Shown here piece by piece: positions 1 to 6,654 of a stretch of 6,654 nucleotides of DNA. Both the position numbers and the translations under genes were made by a program. The stretch comes from a virus (taxonomy: Duplodnaviria; Heunggongvirae; Uroviricota; Caudoviricetes). Under the pieces are notes generated by a model. That model was not told the DNA's origin. It made no database searches and was given only the letters and a program-made list of their open reading frames with translations. Numbering within the stretch: position 1 is the first letter of the stretch; every line of letters starts with the position of its first letter. The DNA lies in the IMG/VR virus record IMGVR_UViG_3300011952_000025; one strand, given 5' to 3'.

Positions 1-697
1 CCATACATATGTTCTGTCATTTTGGTGTTGAACTCGTTTGGTGTCCGAATTGGTAAAGAAGATATTTTGTTTAAAAAAGGAAGTGCTGTCCTCATCGAAT
101 ACAATTTAAAAGATCTTTTTTCGTCAAATACAGATCATCTAATGATCGTAGATGTTGAGGAGAAAACAGTTAATGATTTCTTTAAAAACTACACACTCTC
201 ACCTTTTTCTGTAAGAAGGTTTTATCCGGCATACTTGATAGTAGAATGTGAAGGTNNNNNNNNNNNNNNNNNNNNNNNNNNNNNNNNNNACCGTGGATGT
301 GGTTAGAAATCAAATATCACTTGCATGTCTTGCTGTCTTATCTTCAGAGAAAATAGTGCAAAGTTTTTTGTTCGGAAGTCTTAATAGCTTAGGTTGTAAA
401 GTTAAGGCTATTATTCACTCGGATATCTCAGCGTCATGGAGACTTTGTGATATATCTTCAAGATTATATATGAGCGAGAGTTTGTTAAAAAGAAAATTAA
501 AAGACGAAGGGGTATCGTTTAGTAGATTAATTCTTGAAGAACGAATGATGATGGCGCAAAGATTATTAATTTACAGTAACCATACTGTCGGCAAGGTGGC
601 GGGAATATGCGGGTATGACAATGCATCATATTTTGTAAGTGTTTTTAGAAGATATTTTGGTGTGCCTCCGCACCAATATTTATCAAGATTTTCTTAG
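1..697 (+). CDS. AraC/XylS-family transcriptional regulator; 5' end probably outside the window; interrupted by N-run 256-289
   Basis: C-terminal translation SESLLKRKLKDEGVSFSRLILEERMMMAQRLLIYSNHTVGKVAGICGYDNASYFVSVFRRYFGVPPHQYLSRFS is a typical AraC-type double helix-turn-helix, ending at TAG 695-697. Frame 1 is open from base 1 to the N-run; the post-gap part is in frame 2, so the true gap length is unknown. Visibly AT-rich compared with the phage structural genes. Confidence 0.75.
256..289. other. N-run (34 nt), unresolved sequence inside the AraC-family gene
   Basis: Literal run of n characters; reading frame differs on the two sides. Confidence 0.99.
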
Positions 698-766
698 AAG
701 ATATGATGTGATGGCATTTTATAAAGTTGTTTTTTTGAAGTGTAAGATTATACGATATTTTTAGCT

Positions 767-798
767 ACGCCAGAATAATTGCTGGCGTTTTTCTTTTT
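767..798 (+). terminator. Rho-independent terminator downstream of the AraC-family gene
   Basis: 7-bp stem acgccag (767-773) / ctggcgt (782-788), 8-nt loop, followed by TTTTTCTTTTT (789-798). Confidence 0.6.
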
Positions 799-888
799 GA
801 ATAGATGTTCGGGCCTTACGCTAATGTAATTTTTTTCCTTCTTCGAACCAAACCGTGTACACCATCCGTTATCTGCGGAGGTGAGGCT

Positions 889-1104
889 ATGAAATCCATG
901 GATAAGTTAACAACGGGCATCGCCTACGGCACCTCTGCAGGCAGTGCTGGCTACTGGTTTTTACAGTTGCTCGATAAAGTCACGCCCTCACAGTGGGCGG
1001 CAATAGGTGTATTGGGTAGTCTGGTATTTGGCATGCTGACGTATCTGACTAACCTTTATTTCAAGATTAAAGAAGACAGGCGTAAGGCTGAGAGAGGAGA
1101 GTAA
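889..1104 (+). CDS. S: Class II holin, phage 21 S-like pinholin with dual start (Met1 antiholin, Met4 holin)
   Basis: Translation [71 protein letters not shown] (72 aa). Shine-Dalgarno ggaggtgagg at 876-885. Two predicted transmembrane segments and a charged C-terminus. The MKSM dual-start motif matches the S21 71/68 arrangement as I recall it. Confidence 0.85.
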
Positions 1105-1108
1105 TCCA

Positions 1109-1453
1109 ATGACTCAAGTATACGAACTGGTTGTGAAAGGAGTCCGTAATTTTGAGAATAAAGTTGCGGTAACTTTAGCCTTACAGGACAAAGAACGCTT
1201 TGACGGTGAGATTTTTGACCTTGATATCACTATGGATCGTGTTGAAGGTGCTGCACTGGAGTTTTATGAGGCAGCAGCCAGAAGGAGAATCAGACAGGTG
1301 TTCTTGGATGTTGCTGCCGGGTTATGTGAAGGGGATGAGCAGTCGCCGGAAAAGCGCCCCATAATTTTAGAGGCGCAGAATGTGTGGATAACCTACAAAG
1401 GAAAGCTACCAGGAAGAATTACTGGTTATCTGAAGACTCCGCCGGAATGTTAA
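1109..1453 (+). CDS. Conserved lambdoid-prophage protein of unknown function located between holin and endolysin (YdfR-like by memory)
   Basis: 114-codon ORF starting 5 nt after the holin stop, preceded by gagaggaga. Soluble, charged protein MTQVYELVVKGVRNFENKV... Same strand and tight spacing as the lysis genes. Family assignment is from memory only. Confidence 0.6.
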   Translation: MTQVYELVVKGVRNFENKVAVTLALQDKERFDGEIFDLDITMDRVEGAALEFYEAAARRRIRQVFLDVAAGLCEGDEQSPEKRPIILEAQNVWITYKGKLPGRITGYLKTPPEC

Positions 1454-1691
1454 TTTTAACAGCATATTTCTCTTCCAGTAATGCCACCAGCCACTTGAAG
1501 GAATTTTGTTGTTCCTGGGACCATTTGGGGCTGTGTGATTCAAGCTGGAGCGATGCCAGTGTTGGTTGCATTTGTTCCCTGGGAATTGACAATGCCAGAT
1601 ATGAAAATGCGACAGTAAGGGCATTAACATCATCCCGAAGCCTGGAAATGCAGTCGAGCAACTCCTGAAGAGAAATGGTGTTATTGTCCAT
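1419..1691 (-). CDS. Hypothetical small protein (90 aa) antisense to the lysis operon
   Basis: ATG at 1689-1691 (minus) preceded by caagagga with ~7-nt spacing. Translation MDNNTISLQELLDCISRLRDDVNALTVAFSYLALSIPREQ... is helix-like and more protein-like than the overlapping + and - frame ORFs. Sits in a 343-bp spacer between the 1109-1453 gene and the endolysin, and overlaps the 3' end of 1109-1453 by 35 nt. Confidence 0.3.
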   Translation of the reverse strand: MDNNTISLQELLDCISRLRDDVNALTVAFSYLALSIPREQMQPTLASLQLESHSPKWSQEQQNSFKWLVALLEEKYAVKINIPAESSDNQ

Positions 1692-1796
1692 AAATAATCC
1701 TCTTGATTGTATTTACCTGTTCTCCGCCTGATTCAACAGGTTGGGACAGATAAACATATCCTGGGTTCAGAAATCGATAAATCCTGATAAATATCC

Positions 1797-2330
1797 ATGA
1801 ACGTAAAAGTCAAATACGGCCTGTCGGCTGCCGTTCTGGCGCTGATTGGTGCTGGTGCATCTGCTCCCCAGATACTTGACCAGTTTCTGGACGAAAAAGA
1901 AGGTAACCACACAATGGCATACCGTGATGGTTCCGGCATATGGACCATCTGTCGGGGTGCCACAGTGGTGGATGGAAAACCCGTTTTTCCCAATATGAAA
2001 CTGTCGAAGGAAAAATGCGACCAGGTTAACGCTATTGAGCGTGATAAGGCTCTGGCATGGGTGGAGCGCAATATTAAAGTACCACTGACCGAACCACAAA
2101 AAGCGGGTATCGCGTCATTTTGTCCCTATAACATTGGCCCCGGTAAGTGTTTTCCGTCGACGTTTTATAAACGGCTGAATGCTGGTGATCGTAAAGGTGC
2201 ATGCGAGGCGATTCGCTGGTGGATTAAGGACAGGGGGCGTGATTGCCGCATTCGTTCAAATAACTGTTACGGTCAGGTTATTCGTCGTGATCAGGAGAGC
2301 GCGTTAGTGTGCTGGGGGATCGACAGATAA
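1797..2330 (+). CDS. R: SAR endolysin (phage lysozyme, T4-lysozyme-like glycoside hydrolase with N-terminal signal-anchor-release domain)
   Basis: 177-aa translation MNVKVKYGLSAAVLALIGAGASAPQILDQFLDEKEGNHTMAYRDGSGIWTICRG... has a Gly/Ala-rich weakly hydrophobic N-terminal segment typical of SAR domains, followed by candidate lysozyme catalytic residues (the E of DEKEGN, the D of YRDGSG, the T of IWTICRG). First ATG after an in-frame stop. Confidence 0.88.
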   Translation: MNVKVKYGLSAAVLALIGAGASAPQILDQFLDEKEGNHTMAYRDGSGIWTICRGATVVDGKPVFPNMKLSKEKCDQVNAIERDKALAWVERNIKVPLTEPQKAGIASFCPYNIGPGKCFPSTFYKRLNAGDRKGACEAIRWWIKDRGRDCRIRSNNCYGQVIRRDQESALVCWGIDR

Positions 2331-2423
2331 GCAGAATATTTCTCTGAAAAATGACGTTGGCCAACGCGAGTGGATAACACGATATTCGTCATAAATGAAT
2401 TGAAGTAGTGAATAAGAGCAGAA

Positions 2424-2459
2424 CCCCCGATTGCGCGAACAGTCGGGTTTTTTGTGTTT
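2424..2459 (+). terminator. Terminator-like GC hairpin plus T-tract in the endolysin-Rz spacer
   Basis: cccga (2426-2430) pairs with tcggg (2443-2447) around a GC-rich loop, followed by TTTTTTGTGTTT (2448-2459). Confidence 0.45.
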
Positions 2460-2489
2460 CCTGACTCCGGAAAAGCCAAAGGAGAAAGT

Positions 2490-2627
2490 GTGTTTGATTT
2501 TAGCAAACTGATTCGGGAGATTCGAACTATGGTTGAAAAATTATCCACCTGGAAATTCATTCTTTTCTGGCTGGTGTTTGCGATTATGGCCTCCGGTTAT
2601 TTCATTGCTCAGATACGCTGGTGGTGA
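2490..2627 (+). CDS. Hypothetical small membrane protein (about 45 aa from GTG 2490, or 32 aa from ATG 2529), translationally coupled to Rz
   Basis: Strong Shine-Dalgarno aaaggagaaa (2478-2487) precedes GTG 2490. Translation (M)[44 protein letters not shown] has one clear hydrophobic helix. Stop TGA 2625-2627 lies one base before the Rz ATG 2629. Missing from the ORF track, presumably because it is short. Confidence 0.35.
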
Positions 2628-2628
2628 A

Positions 2629-2997
2629 ATGAAACCGGTTCTGTATGCGGTGATTGTTATTCTACTGGTGGTCAGTGGTGCGCTGTTGCTGGCAATAGCC
2701 CATTACCGCGATAATGCCATCATCTACAAAGAGCAGAGAGATGATGCGAAGACAAAACTCAGCCAGGCGAACGCAGCCATTACTGACATGCAGCAGCGCC
2801 AGCGTGATGTTACTGCACTCGATGCAAAATACCTGAAGGAATTAGCTGATGCGAAAGCTGAAAATGATGCTCTTCGTGATGATATTGCCGCTGGTCGTCG
2901 TCGGTTGCACATCAGAGCAGTCTGTCAGAGCGTGCGTGAAGCCACCGCCGCCTCCGGCGTGGGTAATGCAGCCGCCCCCCGACTGGCAGACACCGCT
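2629..2997 (+). CDS. Rz: Rz i-spanin (inner-membrane spanin subunit), lambda-like allele, 3' end lost in N-run 2998-3007
   Basis: Translation [123 protein letters not shown]: N-terminal transmembrane segment plus coiled-coil periplasmic domain, closely resembling lambda Rz as I recall it. The ORF-track start at 2533 (TTG) is rejected in favour of ATG 2629. Confidence 0.85.
2849..2997 (+). CDS. Rz1: Rz1 o-spanin (outer-membrane lipoprotein) embedded in the +1 frame of Rz copy 1, truncated by N-run
   Basis: ATG 2849 preceded by aagga. Translation [50 protein letters not shown]... has a lipobox (VVGC) and a proline-rich tract like lambda Rz1. Confidence 0.7.
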
Positions 2998-3007
2998 NNN
3001 NNNNNNN
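2998..3007. other. N-run (10 nt) joining two overlapping, diverged Rz/Rz1 segments
   Basis: Literal n characters. Sequence on both sides encodes the same part of Rz (HYRDNAI... onward). Confidence 0.99.
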
Positions 3008-3008
3008 T

Positions 3009-3383
3009 AATCATTACCGTGATAACGCCATCGCCTACAAAGAACAGCGCGATAAGGCCGCATCCATTATCGCTGACATGCAGAAACGTCAAAGTGATGT
3101 AGCTGAACTCGATGCCAGATATACAAAGGAGCTTGCTGATGCTAACGCGACTATCGAAAGTCTTCGTGCTGATGTTTCTGCTGGGCGTAAGCGGCTGCGC
3201 GTCAAAGCAGTCTGTCCCGACATGCATAAAATCACCGCCGCCTCCGGCGTGGATGATGGCACCAGCCCCAGACTTACTGACGCCGCTCAACGGGATTATT
3301 TCACCCTCAGAGAGCGACTGATAATAATGCAAAAACAACTTGAAGGGGCACAGCTATACATTCGAGAGCAATGCCTCAGATAA
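3009..3383 (+). CDS. Rz: Rz i-spanin, second (diverged) allele, 5' end missing at the N-run; carries the complete Rz C-terminus
   Basis: Frame-3 translation from the gap: NHYRDNAIAYKEQRDKAASIIADMQKRQSDVAELDARYTKELADANATIESLRADVSAGRKRLRVKAVCPDMHKITAASGVDDGTSPRLTDAAQRDYFTLRERLIIMQKQLEGAQLYIREQCLR, stop TAA 3381-3383. Confidence 0.8.
   Translation, partial: NHYRDNAIAYKEQRDKAASIIADMQKRQSDVAELDARYTKELADANATIESLRADVSAGRKRLRVKAVCPDMHKITAASGVDDGTSPRLTDAAQRDYFTLRERLIIMQKQLEGAQLYIREQCLR
3139..3321 (+). CDS. Rz1: Rz1 o-spanin (outer-membrane lipoprotein) embedded in the +1 frame of Rz
   Basis: ATG 3139 preceded by aaggag (3126-3131). Translation MLTRLSKVFVLMFLLGVSGCASKQSVPTCIKSPPPPAWMMAPAPDLLTPLNGIISPSESD (60 aa) has a signal peptide, lipobox Cys and proline-rich region, and is wholly nested in Rz. 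Confidence 0.85.
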   Translation: MLTRLSKVFVLMFLLGVSGCASKQSVPTCIKSPPPPAWMMAPAPDLLTPLNGIISPSESD

Positions 3384-3652
3384 AAACCGGCCAAGGATAA
3401 TCCGCTGAAGATTCGCCGGGGCTAGAGAGAGCCAAAGCTTTAATTGACACCATTACTCATAGCAAGGCAATGCATCGTTTTTATGAGGTCAATAGATGCC
3501 TGATTTATTTCTGTGCTCCGTATCGTCGCTGTATTCCTTCGTTAACCATGAGTGTAGTCCGACGGGGAGCACGAGTGTATGGGAATAATAAAAAAAGATA
3601 CACACCTGGGTTTACCGCTTTTATGCTTCGCGGGTTTGCTCTTCATGCAGCT

Positions 3653-3699
3653 AGTCCGGTACAGAGGTGTATGAAACCGGACTGCTGATTTAATTAATT
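3653..3699. terminator. 8-bp-stem hairpin with U-rich 3' flank on the + strand; also sits just 3' of the minus-strand cargo ORF stop
   Basis: agtccggt (3653-3660) pairs with accggact (3676-3683) around a 15-nt loop, followed by gctgatttaattaatt. Confidence 0.35.
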
Positions 3700-3700
3700 C

Positions 3701-4121
3701 CTATATTAATGGTCTGTTATTTTCAACATCTTCCATGTACAAAAGATCGTGATCAAACGAATAGTAAAACCTTATGTTTTTATCTATATCTGTAATCCAG
3801 CGATAAACACCTGCTTTTGCTAAAGTGAGACGATATTGATGAAATNNNNNNNNNNTGAAATGTAGATTTACCTGATATAAGATTTCTGGCTGCTTCTTTA
3901 ATTAATTCTGGTTTCTTTGATGTGCTAACTTTCACAAGTCCTCTACTGCCTCGAACTAATAAAATATTATCATCATGAGTAATTAGTCTTATATTATCAG
4001 TAGCCAGATAATAAATATAATGCGCAATATTATGGCGTTTTAATTCGGAGTAAAACCATGGGAAGTATAAATTACTTCTAACGTGTTCGAATATCTCTTG
4101 AAAAATATCTGCCTGCTCCAT
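3701..4121 (-). CDS. Hypothetical AT-rich cargo (moron) protein, about 140 aa, interrupted by N-run 3846-3855; family unknown
   Basis: ATG at 4119-4121 (minus) preceded by aagagga. N-terminal translation MEQADIFQEIFEHVRSNLYFPWFYSELKRHNIAHYIYYLATDNIRLITHDDNILLVRGSRGLVKVSTSKKPELIKEAARNLISGKSTF. After the N-run the most protein-like frame continues FHQYRLTLAKAGVYRWITDIDKNIRFYYSFDHDLLYMEDVENNRPLI to the stop at 3701-3703; the literal-frame ORF in the track ends at 3780 instead. Opposite strand to the late operon and strongly AT-rich. Confidence 0.45.
3846..3855. other. N-run (10 nt) inside the cargo ORF
   Basis: Literal n characters. Confidence 0.99.
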
Positions 4122-4252
4122 CAGGAAATATCCTCTTGTCACTGCTACTTCTTACCATGAGCTTAGATAGTTTGCATGATTTGTTCTCTCACATCAATCT
4201 GATCCGACCTCATTGAGGTGGGCGTTGTGAATACCTGATAAGAAATGTGGGT

Positions 4253-4294
4253 CCTCCCAATGGGGGAGGCTGGCACGGGGCGGGAGCGTCGCGG
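4253..4294. other. Candidate cos site: cosQ-like inverted repeat plus cosN-like sequence
   Basis: ACGGGGCGGGAGCGTCGCGG (4275-4294) matches lambda ACGGGGCGGCGACCTCGCGG at 16 of 20 positions. Inverted repeat cctccc (4253-4258) / gggagg (4264-4269) lies just upstream. The cosN-like site is about 185 nt upstream of the terminase small-subunit start, as in lambda (cosN to Nu1 about 190 nt). An AT-rich cosB-like tract follows. Confidence 0.45.
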
Positions 4295-4473
4295 AAAAAG
4301 GCTAGTTTTTGCATTTCCATGGCGGCGGCAGCATGTTTGGTAATTTATTGATAATTAAAAGTTATTTCCCTTTTCACCTGTACAATATTTTTTTCTTCCT
4401 GTCATTAGACCAGTTTGCAATTAATTGAAATATATAAATAAACCTGATTTTCACCTGCCAGATGGAGTTGCTT

Positions 4474-5001
4474 ATGTCAAATGTGAGCGGGATCGGTGAT
4501 GCTTATTACTGGAGTGTTTTTAAAATCGCCGAGGCCTTTGGGCTTCACCGGGACACAGTAAAAAAACGGCTCCTCGCGGCCAACACTCCTGTGGCTGCGA
4601 CTGTCAGGGGGAACCCCGTTTACGCCCTGCAGCATGTCGGGCCCGCCCTGTTTAGTGTGAAGCATGAGGCAGCAGACTCTGTTCATGATCCATCCCGTAT
4701 GGAGCCGAAAGAGAGAAAGGACTGGTACCAGTCTGAAAATGAAAGGATCAAGCTGGAAAAGGAGCAGCGAAAACTCATCCCAGTTGATGAAGTAGTCATC
4801 GTCTATTCGTCCATGAGAAAGGCTGTCGTCCAGGTTCTGGAGACAATTCCGGATGTTCTTGAACGCGATTGCGCTCTGACTCCTCAGGCCGTCGGCGTTG
4901 TACAGCAGGCCATTGATGACCTGCGATACACTCTTCAGGAAAAATCCTACGAGGCTTGTGCTGCTGAATTAATTCCTGATGAGGAAGGAGAGAGTCTCTA
5001 G
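4474..5001 (+). CDS. Terminase small subunit (Nu1-like DNA-recognition subunit); alternative start at ATG 4462
   Basis: Translation MSNVSGIGDAYYWSVFKIAEAFGLHRDTVKKRLLAANTPV... has an N-terminal helix-turn-helix analogous to lambda Nu1 and an acidic C-terminus. ggag precedes ATG 4474. Lies immediately downstream of the cos-like site and 9 nt upstream of the large subunit. Confidence 0.8.
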   Translation: MSNVSGIGDAYYWSVFKIAEAFGLHRDTVKKRLLAANTPVAATVRGNPVYALQHVGPALFSVKHEAADSVHDPSRMEPKERKDWYQSENERIKLEKEQRKLIPVDEVVIVYSSMRKAVVQVLETIPDVLERDCALTPQAVGVVQQAIDDLRYTLQEKSYEACAAELIPDEEGESL

Positions 5002-5009
5002 GAGGAATA

Positions 5010-6654
5010 ATGGGTTTTTCATCAGCCCGAAATTTGGGAAGGGACATATCGGCAGGATTTTCCCCACCACGTCGCATGCCGATTTCGGAGGCTGTTAAAA
5101 AATTCATGCGTGTTCCCAAGGGGGCTGGTAACTCGGTGCCATGGGATCCTGAACTGACACCCTACATCATNNNNNNNNNNATTGAGCCCATGAACTGCCT
5201 GGCATCGCGTGAATACGATGCGGTGATTTTTGTTGGTCCTGCGCGAACAGGGAAGACCATTGGTCTGATCGATGGATGGATTGTCTATACCATCGTTTGC
5301 GATCCTTCGGACATGCTCGTTGTGCAGATGACCGAAGATAAGGCCCGCGAGCATTCTAAAAAGCGCCTCGACAGAACGTTCAGAAGCAGTGCGGCGGTAA
5401 AGAAAAGAATGAGTCCACGTCGTAACGACAATAATGTCCATGATAAGACGTTCAGGGATGGCTCGTTCCTTAAAATTGGTTGGCCCTCGGTCAACATTAT
5501 GTCGTCGTCGGATTACCGGTTTGTCGCCTTAACCGATTACGACCGTTTTCCGGAGAATATCGACAGCGAGGGTGATGGTTTCTCCCTGGCCTCAAAACGT
5601 ACCACCACATTTATGTCCGCCGGGATGACTCTGGTGGAGAGCTCGCCGGGACGTGACATCTGCGACAGCAAATGGCGACGTAAGTCGCCTCATGAAGCGC
5701 CACCGACGACTGGTATTCTTTCCCTTTACAATCGTGGTGACCGCCGCCGCTGGTACTGGCCATGTCCGCACTGCGGTGAATATTTTCAGCCAGCTATGGA
5801 TGCCATGACCGGCTACCGTAATGAACCGGATCCCTTTAAAGCCAGTGAGGCGGCGTATCTACTTTGCCCGCACTGCAGCGGCATTATCACTGCGGAGAAA
5901 AAGCGTGAGCTCAATAGTGCAGGAGTCTGGTTGCGTGAAGGTCAGGTCATTGATCGTAACGGCAACGTTTCCGGTGAACCGCGCCGCTCCCGTATCGCCA
6001 GTTTCTGGATGGAAGGGCCAGCTGCTGCGTATCAGACCTGGGCGCAACTGGTTTACAAATTACTGACTGCAGAACAGGAGTATGAAGCGACAGGAAGCGA
6101 AGAAACACTCAGGGCGGTTATCAACACCGACTGGGGATTGCCTTATCTTCCTCGTGCCAGCATGGAGCAACGAAAAAGTGAACTGCTTGAGCAGCGGGCA
6201 GAGCCAGTTCCTTCCTGCAGTGTGCCGGATGGCGTTAATTTCCTTGTGGCGACAGTGGATGTGCAGGCGGGACGTCATCGCCGTTTTGTGGTTCAGGTAA
6301 CTGGCTATGGCAGTCGTGGCGAACGCTGGATTATTGATCGTTACAATATCACGCAGTCATTGCGCAGTGACTGCGACGGGGAGAGCCAGCGAATTGATCC
6401 GGCCAGCTATCCGGAAGACTGGGATGTCCTGCTGACGGATGTTTTTCATAAAAGCTGGCCGCTGGCCTCCGATCCTTCTCAACAAATGCGACTGATGGCA
6501 ATGGCGGTGGACTCCGGCGGTGAAGACGGGGTCACTGATAATGCCTATAAATTCTGGCGTCGTTGCCGTCGTGATGGCCTTGGTAAACGTATTTACCTGT
6601 TTAAGGGCGACAGCATCCGGCGCGCAAAACTGATCACCCGTACATTCCCTGATA
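5010..6654 (+). CDS. Terminase large subunit, GpA family (ATPase/nuclease), 3' end beyond window; interrupted by N-run 5171-5180
   Basis: aggagg (5000-5005) then ATG 5010. Frame 3 is open to the window end. Walker A-like VGPARTGKT; paired CxxC zinc-ribbon motifs WYWPCPHCGE and LLCPHCSG, as in lambda gpA; continuous GpA-like translation to base 6654. Confidence 0.9.
   Translation, partial: MGFSSARNLGRDISAGFSPPRRMPISEAVKKFMRVPKGAGNSVPWDPELTPYIXXXXIEPMNCLASREYDAVIFVGPARTGKTIGLIDGWIVYTIVCDPSDMLVVQMTEDKAREHSKKRLDRTFRSSAAVKKRMSPRRNDNNVHDKTFRDGSFLKIGWPSVNIMSSSDYRFVALTDYDRFPENIDSEGDGFSLASKRTTTFMSAGMTLVESSPGRDICDSKWRRKSPHEAPPTTGILSLYNRGDRRRWYWPCPHCGEYFQPAMDAMTGYRNEPDPFKASEAAYLLCPHCSGIITAEKKRELNSAGVWLREGQVIDRNGNVSGEPRRSRIASFWMEGPAAAYQTWAQLVYKLLTAEQEYEATGSEETLRAVINTDWGLPYLPRASMEQRKSELLEQRAEPVPSCSVPDGVNFLVATVDVQAGRHRRFVVQVTGYGSRGERWIIDRYNITQSLRSDCDGESQRIDPASYPEDWDVLLTDVFHKSWPLASDPSQQMRLMAMAVDSGGEDGVTDNAYKFWRRCRRDGLGKRIYLFKGDSIRRAKLITRTFPD
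5171..5180. other. N-run (10 nt) inside the terminase large-subunit gene
   Basis: Literal n characters; the frame happens to be the same on both sides. Confidence 0.99.

Follow-up and report, generated by a model that had tools for sequence, protein, structure and literature searches.

An intact DUF1398 gene of the lambda p78 family between the spanin genes and cos of a lambdoid prophage, a candidate cargo gene

We analysed a 6,654-nt stretch of DNA from a virus of the class Caudoviricetes (IMG/VR record IMGVR_UViG_3300011952_000025; the whole stretch is referred to here as the window), which spans the junction between the lysis and packaging genes of a lambdoid prophage. An intact minus-strand gene lies here between the spanin genes and the cohesive-end site (cos); it encodes a 134-residue protein of the DUF1398 family, to which lambda p78 and the Escherichia coli proteins YbcV, YdfO and YcgX also belong. 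We regard both the family assignment and the intactness of the gene as practically certain. The gene is not of a new kind, as gene, family, homologue structure and presence in lambda are already on record. The explanation that best accounts for the observations as a whole, and which we consider rather likely, is that this is a cargo gene; its product is, less surely, a cytoplasmic binding protein that may affect the stress physiology of the host. The gene and the features that define it in the window are as follows.

3701..4121, minus strand: coding sequence of the DUF1398 family (421 nt in the window; 405 nt and 134 residues without a 16-nt scaffold artefact)
4131..4137, minus strand: Shine-Dalgarno-like AAGAGGA, with a 9-nt spacer to the ATG; an alignment shows AAGAGG/GGAAGG to be conserved
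3840..3861, no strand assigned: scaffold-join artefact consisting of TGAAAT (3840-3845), 10 N (3846-3855) and a repeated TGAAAT (3856-3861); the reference genome has one TGAAAT
4278..4294, plus strand: cohesive-end site (cos) GGGCGGGAGCGTCGCGG, lambda counterpart GGGCGGCGACCTCGCGG; distance to the DUF1398 start codon 157 nt

The gene starts with an ATG at 4121-4119 and ends with a TAG at 3703-3701. An earlier note on this DNA had described a minus-strand open reading frame (ORF) with a Shine-Dalgarno sequence and an ATG at 4121, and this is what we find; the length of ~140 residues that it gave for the protein is corrected here to 134. In the window as given the ORF is interrupted by the N-run at 3846-3855, which separates 88 N-terminal residues (3856-4121) from 47 C-terminal residues (3701-3844), and the two halves lie in different frames because of this N-run alone. 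N-runs aside, a prophage of E. coli WP2-W18-ESBL-08 (NZ_AP021933.1) matches window positions 1-2997 and 3290-6654 at 99.9-100% identity. Six complete E. coli genomes match positions 3290-4500 of the window at 100% identity except that they lack 16 nt, namely the 10 N and the duplicated TGAAAT; the base-by-base comparison over this interval is shown for WP2-W18-ESBL-08. Elsewhere in the window, the 10 N at 5171-5180 conceal a 2-bp overlap and a run of 34 N stands for 48 real bases. On the strength of these sequence comparisons, the N-runs are scaffold joins of overlapping contigs.

Removal of the 16 nt yields an uninterrupted ORF of 405 nt for 134 residues, whose product is listed in RefSeq as WP_025238988.1, 'DUF1398 family protein', and the intact gene is carried by nine complete E. 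coli genomes. The earlier note was right that an N-run splits the gene in the window as given, and its statement that true length and frame are uncertain has been settled by the identical, intact DNA of complete genomes. The ratio of non-synonymous to synonymous substitution rates (dN/dS) of the window gene is 0.10 relative to its sister allele and 0.11 relative to ycgX, dS being saturated (~2 against ycgX); values near 0.1 indicate purifying selection. A pseudogene, which the earlier note had allowed for should frameshifts or stops emerge from the resolved sequence, is excluded by the identical intact genes, in which there is no frameshift, together with the dN/dS.

Joined across the artefact, the protein matches Pfam PF07166 (DUF1398) with an E-value of 3.6e-38 and a score of 130.7 bits, the cut-off (gathering threshold) of this family being 22 bits, and its residues 8-130 span the complete profile (1-119 of 119). 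Comparison with PDB 2HH8, the nuclear magnetic resonance structure of E. coli YdfO, gave an E-value of 5.9e-38. An AlphaFold2 model of a 98%-identical sequence, built with 20 homologues, has a predicted local distance difference test score of 91.6 and consists of two alpha-alpha-beta-beta-beta repeats, so that the window protein shares the YdfO-like fold of tandem repeats seen in 2HH8. When the N- and C-terminal halves were compared profile to profile, they aligned weakly and in a sensible register (E-value 4.6e-4), and this comparison of sequences suggests that the DUF1398 fold may have come from an internal duplication. The earlier note could fit the protein into no family; the protein belongs to DUF1398 over its full length, the structure of a homologue has been solved, and RefSeq lists the identical protein. 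The same note had called the gene the best candidate for an undescribed function, barring clear homology to a characterised family. Such homology exists as far as family membership goes, and the family has long been catalogued; DUF1398 itself is functionally uncharacterised, and in this weak sense the suggestion holds.

Across 26 diverse members of the family only Y35, A96, G99 and W103 are invariant, while G84, V100, D106, Y114 and E125 are nearly so, and the window protein carries every one of these residues. Its G84 is shared with most of the family and is replaced in the clade of YbcV, YdfO and p78. No conserved catalytic residues were found in the alignment of these 26 members. The window protein has a mass of 16 kDa and a pI (isoelectric point) of 8.0, and it contains no membrane segment (maximum Kyte-Doolittle value 0.36), no signal peptide, no lipobox and no cysteine. 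A Foldseek search returned no significant structural match and no close relative of the fold outside the family, and an NCBIfam scan gave nothing useful for this gene. The platforms of proteins resembling class I molecules of the major histocompatibility complex (ULBP6, MICA, RAE-1, CD1 and EPCR) offer a structural analogy only, at 4-11% sequence identity: they are built from four strands followed by one long helix, twice over, whereas DUF1398 proteins have the order alpha-alpha-beta-beta-beta twice.

The order of genes in the window is Rz, DUF1398 (minus strand), cos, the DUF1441 small terminase gene (terS) and the GpA-type large terminase gene (terL). The earlier note had placed the Rz stop at 3383, which we confirm, and a cos-like site at about 4275; cos is indeed there and starts at 4278, where the first base of both the Tritos and the cdtI phage record aligns, and the left end of lambda also aligns. 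A DUF1398 gene lying antisense to the late operon between Rz/Rz1 and cos/terS is likewise present in lambda, in E. coli 55989 and in two further E. coli prophages (L066 and L067). The latter two carry the window allele, with two amino-acid differences, in the same slot and next to different terminase alleles, which answers the proposal in the earlier note that related prophages be searched for the gene at this position. In lambda, lambdap78 (NP_597781.1; 47042-47575, minus strand) lies between bor and cos, with the divergent lambdap79 present; over the conserved core of lambdap78, its identity to the window protein is 50%. In E. coli 55989, Rz is followed by a YbcV-type DUF1398 gene on the minus strand, a ybcW-like gene and DUF1441 terS, in that order, and in phage Tritos a pair of DUF1398 and ybcW-like genes comes after a set of cold-shock genes. 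Because lambda has a DUF1398 homologue in the slot, the window gene is a usual resident of this place rather than an unusual insertion. Phage cdtI shares the cos/terS side with the window at 97% identity but has an unrelated gene, orf60, after Rz; the content of the slot thus varies, as accessory genes would lead one to expect.

The window gene resembles lambdap78, ybcV (of prophage DLP12) and ydfO (of prophage Qin) in its conserved upstream promoter block and in the length of the protein core (134-136 residues), and lambdap78 further shares its slot and antisense orientation; their products differ from the window protein in having only 46-50% amino-acid identity with it. Lambda, DLP12, Tritos and E. 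coli 55989 carry the divergent ybcW/lambdap79 gene and lambda in addition bor, whereas the window carries neither. In a tblastn search lambdap79 had no match in the window, and no ybcW/lambdap79 gene is annotated in the NZ_AP021933.1 prophage, L066 or L067. The earlier note had assigned the lambda slot to bor. That gene is present and is, like the window gene, an antisense accessory gene between Rz and cos in lambdoid phages, but the account was incomplete, since the slot also holds lambdap78, a DUF1398 homologue on the same strand, and lambdap79. Bor is a lipoprotein with a signal peptide and is unrelated to the DUF1398 protein; a tblastn search for Bor found nothing significant in the window (best E-value 0.047, outside the slot). 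A Bor-like outer-membrane lipoprotein was ruled out by the lack of Bor similarity in the slot, of a cysteine and of a hydrophobic N-terminus.

The nucleotide composition of the gene sets it apart from its surroundings. Its GC content is 31.6% (23.7% at third codon positions), against 46% for the window overall and 50-53% for the neighbouring lysozyme, terS and terL genes. The AT-rich stretch measures ~500 bp (about 3650-4150) and comprises essentially the ORF alone, while positions 3384-3600 have a GC content of 44-45%; the compositionally distinct segment is thus shorter than the ~900 bp given in the earlier note. The broader proposal of that note, an AT-rich and oppositely oriented accessory gene between the spanins and cos that looks horizontally mobile, is supported.

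The signals around the gene that could govern its expression are as follows.

4169..4197, minus strand: promoter-like element made up of TTGATG (4197-4192), a 17-nt spacer ending in TG, and CAAACT (4174-4169)
4201..4209, minus strand: degenerate GntR-type operator half-palindrome GGTCGGATC, abutting the -35; ybcV, ydfO and lambda p78 have GGTCAGACC
3648..3687, no strand assigned: stable hairpin 14 nt past the DUF1398 stop, where the Rz and DUF1398 genes converge; a candidate bidirectional terminator

The promoter-like element was recognised solely by comparing alleles. The upstream regions of 13 genes from four clades (window type, ycgX type, ydfO/ybcV and lambda) were aligned, and a block of ~42 nt proved common to all 13, set between unrelated flanks. 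The promoter-like element forms the core of this block, and every enterobacterial DUF1398 gene, lambda p78 among them, is preceded by it. The block occupies 4210-4169 on the minus strand of the window, and was located at 4769-4808 of the WP2-W18-ESBL-08 prophage locus (L001), at 2986-3025 of the lambda locus (L049) and in further loci (L002-L048). Its consensus reads GGTC(A/G)GA(C/T)CAGATTGA(A/T)G, then 17 nt ending in TG, then CA(A/C/G)ACTA. Between clades the block is 64-81% identical, as against 39-50% at third codon positions, and the motif derived from it occurs once per locus, 35-75 nt upstream of the start codon. The window contains the expected succession of a GntR-type box, a TTGAAG-like -35, 17 nt and TGCAAACT, with the GntR/PdhR half-site itself degenerate; several ycgX-type alleles share with the window allele a degenerate left half of the block. 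A scan for consensus promoters and terminators reported no promoter upstream of the DUF1398 gene, missing the element because its -10 matches at only 3 of 6 positions, and no terminator, the hairpin having failed the T-run rule.

The hairpin has folding free energies of -19.9 and -19.0 kcal/mol and a z-score of -3.3 on both strands, with a U-rich tail on the plus strand only. No PdhR site was found in the window at three or fewer mismatches to the consensus, and a FadR consensus match (4197-4213) has three mismatches, which is within chance, so that control by FadR is not claimed. Rfam detected no RNA family in the slot between Rz and cos. Independent expression of the window gene from the candidate promoter block, with the hairpin downstream, is plausible. 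It had been put forward in the earlier note for what that note took to be a horizontally acquired gene, together with a search for a native promoter in 4122-4250, and the block at 4210-4169 found by comparison of alleles lies in that interval.

Independently expressed accessory genes of phages are known as morons in the sense of Hendrix and colleagues. Two properties of such genes can be read off directly. The composition of the DUF1398 gene is unlike that of its flanks, and the gene is present or absent between otherwise adjacent genes, as orf60 of cdtI and the other alleles and genes in lambda and E. coli 55989 illustrate. With its low GC content, candidate promoter block, operator remnant and hairpin, the window gene looks like a self-contained cargo gene of this type.

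The window allele is rare in E. coli, being found at no less than 95% nucleotide identity in 9 of 5,426 complete genomes. Its closest paralogue, chromosomal ycgX (70% nucleotide and 65% amino-acid identity), is present in ~5,011 of these genomes (~92%). YcgX likewise has 134 residues and ends in ...EDVENN(K/R)PLI, and the upstream block is common to both genes. They differ in that ycgX is a fixed chromosomal gene next to bluR, near the e14 prophage and outside any functional prophage, while the window gene is phage-borne and rare. An enterobacterial profile found only 271 matches among 1.84 billion representative proteins, and a broader profile found 4,816, many of them from Bacteroidota.

The homologues in Bacteroidota are chromosomal. 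In three look-ups with different flanks the DUF1398 gene follows a gene for an AraC-family regulator (DUF6597 plus HTH_18), and in others it follows a small cupin-like ORF. The neighbourhoods of distant homologues thus contain a recurrent AraC(DUF6597)-DUF1398 pair and a cupin-like neighbour, and yielded no functional assignment. Positions of DUF1398 genes at the end of an aryl-polyene cluster or near Rhs or HigB genes look incidental. Many apparent homologues in further, unrelated phyla were rejected as contamination with lambda control DNA: contigs labelled Pseudomonas, Kitasatospora, Brevibacillus, Flavobacterium, Pedobacter, Shewanella and others are ~3.5 kb or ~48.5 kb long and hold one shared p78-type sequence (50% identity to the query over residues 1-129, as in lambda). 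We take the nanopore 3.6-kb control strand and whole-lambda spike-ins to be their source.

Published observations on DUF1398 genes consist of mentions in expression studies or screens, and we found no mechanism among them. A PdhR site was mapped at GGTCAGACC by genomic SELEX (systematic evolution of ligands by exponential enrichment), and in a pdhR mutant the ybcV and ybcW mRNAs were down ~10-fold (PMC7660256). Overexpression of T4 MotB, in a study of how this protein alters H-NS-dependent repression, raised ybcV and ybcW more than 1000-fold (PMC7827196), with which the suggestion of H-NS-type silencing in the earlier note is in keeping. ycgX was de-repressed in an hha ydgT mutant (PMC3686432). 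ydfO was induced by an ionic liquid, and overexpression of YdfO, as cited in the same study, raises resistance to oxidative stress (PMC4077768). The ybcV transcript was ~11-fold higher (log2 3.5) in a transcriptome comparison from an evolution study of sabinene tolerance (PMC7181518), and ybcV overexpression changes glycogen accumulation (PMC2853380).

From these elements a tentative mechanism can be proposed, namely that under stress the prophage expresses a cytoplasmic binding protein without enzymatic activity, which modulates host physiology. While the prophage is repressed, transcription of the gene would start at a weak, factor-dependent promoter of its own. H-NS would probably silence the gene, and stress would lift this silencing, as has been reported for ybcV. 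Its product would be a soluble cytoplasmic protein of 16 kDa with two alpha-alpha-beta-beta-beta repeats, the picture of a soluble and non-enzymatic protein arising from the few residues invariant among the 26 members and the absence of a membrane segment and of cysteine. Rather than catalysing a reaction, the protein would most likely bind a host protein or a small hydrophobic ligand. Its role may be to modulate the stress or metabolic physiology of the host to the benefit of the lysogen, as opposed to a part in virion assembly or lysis.

Several points weigh against this interpretation. Binding instead of catalysis is argued from the absence of conserved polar residues, and the data on phenotype and expression all come from paralogues that are 46-65% identical, mostly in high-throughput screens. 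The promoter is weak by consensus, with its 3-of-6 match at the -10, and is absent from the output of the consensus scan. The window has a broken PdhR half-site (ACC to ATC) where ybcV, ydfO and p78 have an intact one, and the regulation of the window gene may therefore differ. The hairpin lacks a U-run on the strand of the DUF1398 gene itself. Finally, a computational study from 2025 offered no functional inference for ycgX (PMC12356324).

Among other functions, the earlier note had suggested host interaction or anti-phage activity, and we considered whether the gene serves anti-phage defence, superinfection exclusion or counter-defence from a prophage accessory slot. The gene lies next to cos, is oppositely oriented and has a low GC content and a candidate promoter of its own, all of which is typical of accessory loci in prophages, where such genes are often found; the window allele is patchily distributed (the 9 genomes above), and alleles replace one another within the slot, YcgX-like in the window and YbcV-like in E. 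coli 55989 and lambda. However, none of the 5,027 models of PADLOC-DB 2.0 matched at E-values up to 1, and the gene encodes one small protein that has neither an enzymatic nor a sensor domain and lacks conserved catalytic residues. The near-core status of ycgX in E. coli, and the existence of distant homologues as ordinary chromosomal genes beside AraC regulators in Bacteroidota, point away from defence as well. The sole phage-related mention that we found is the loss of ydfO in one phage-resistant mutant of avian pathogenic E. coli, which runs in the opposite direction. A role in defence or exclusion thus lacks positive support, and we judge it improbable.

Database labels point to another function, that of a virion structural protein. 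PHROG 413, labelled 'head protein', matches the window protein with an E-value of 2.8e-47, RefSeq names lambdap78 'head protein' in the lambda record (NC_001416), and older records have 'putative envelope protein'. Yet the gene runs antisense to the late operon, with cos lying between it and the head genes, and the only remark on p78 in the lambda record is 'Predicted by GeneMark'. Lambdap78 is non-essential, its knock-down by CRISPR interference leaving plaquing unreduced (PMC10695390). Prophage remnants and the chromosomal ycgX locus retain paralogues although they have no head genes, the Bacteroidota homologues have no phage context, and the window protein has neither a signal peptide nor a membrane segment. 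Because of the strand, the non-essentiality of lambdap78 and the non-phage homologues, the 'head protein' and 'envelope protein' labels are doubtful; they are unsupported and probably a propagated misannotation, and we consider a structural role in the virion very improbable. Least credible of all is a decaying or non-functional remnant, its ORF truly split or merely hitch-hiking: in the window as given the two halves do not share a frame, and databases contain many truncated or partial DUF1398 proteins, but the frame break comes wholly from the 10 N and the 6-bp duplicated overlap, a pattern with parallels at the other scaffold joins, and the gene is intact in nine complete genomes, evolves at the low dN/dS given above and encodes every family-invariant residue.

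The remaining genes of the window are those of a lambdoid lysis-to-packaging region.

22-697: AraC-family gene (237 residues in the reference; HTH_18; PHROG 1450)
889-1104: P21-type holin gene
between the holin and lysozyme genes: DUF1327/YdfR gene
1797-2330: lysozyme gene
ending at 3383: Rz/Rz1
4462/4474-5001: DUF1441 small terminase gene (terS)
after terS: GpA-type large terminase gene (terL)

The AraC-family gene (~33% GC) is a second low-GC accessory gene, located just upstream of the holin gene; it is interrupted by the run of 34 N, and a terminator-like hairpin lies at 767-788. The AraC regulators paired with DUF1398 in Bacteroidota have another N-terminal domain than the protein encoded here. 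An antisense ORF of 90 codons (1419-1691, minus strand) overlaps the 3' end of the DUF1327 gene, matches PHROG 2411 (E-value 3e-53) and is a hypothetical protein in RefSeq. On the 3' side of the lysozyme gene, 2426-2447 forms a strong hairpin resembling an intrinsic terminator (CCCGA...TCGGG followed by T6). It is followed at 2490-2627 by a 45-residue ORF that is unannotated in RefSeq, encodes one hydrophobic segment, matches PHROG 6632 (E-value 3e-26) and has a stop codon abutting the Rz start codon.

Within the Rz/Rz1 region (2629-3383), the N-run at 2998-3007 joins two different alleles. The first (2629-2997) matches the reference prophage at 100% identity, and the second (3008-3290) is a diverged copy that restarts near Rz codon 15-25. 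The apparent partial duplication of Rz/Rz1 most likely arose when contigs from two prophages were joined during scaffolding, and is unlikely to be a real tandem duplication. The 300 nt that follow Rz (window 3384-3700) are conserved at ~77% in more than 2,000 E. coli genomes and in part in the bor-p78 interval of lambda. They contain an unannotated 72-residue ORF (3470-3688, plus strand) with a weak match to PHROG 6954, 'Rz-like spanin' (E-value 3e-10), which may be a gene or conserved non-coding DNA.

Looking beyond the cargo-gene interpretation, a more specific and decidedly speculative idea is that DUF1398 proteins are small ligand-binding platforms, with a pseudo-symmetric fold of a sheet plus helices whose nearest analogues are the MHC-like platforms that present lipids or peptides, and that their expression is wired to sensors of the GntR/FadR family (PdhR, perhaps FadR) through the operator beside the -35; we give it little credence. 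If it were true, lambdoid prophages would couple the membrane-lipid or central-carbon status of the host to the phenotype of the lysogen, and the rare YcgX-like phage allele of this window, whose operator is altered, would represent a re-wired variant. Lambda p78 is among the few genes of lambda that have no assigned function. It travels in a cassette together with a conserved promoter/operator, and this layout makes regulation of the PdhR/FadR type and by H-NS directly testable.
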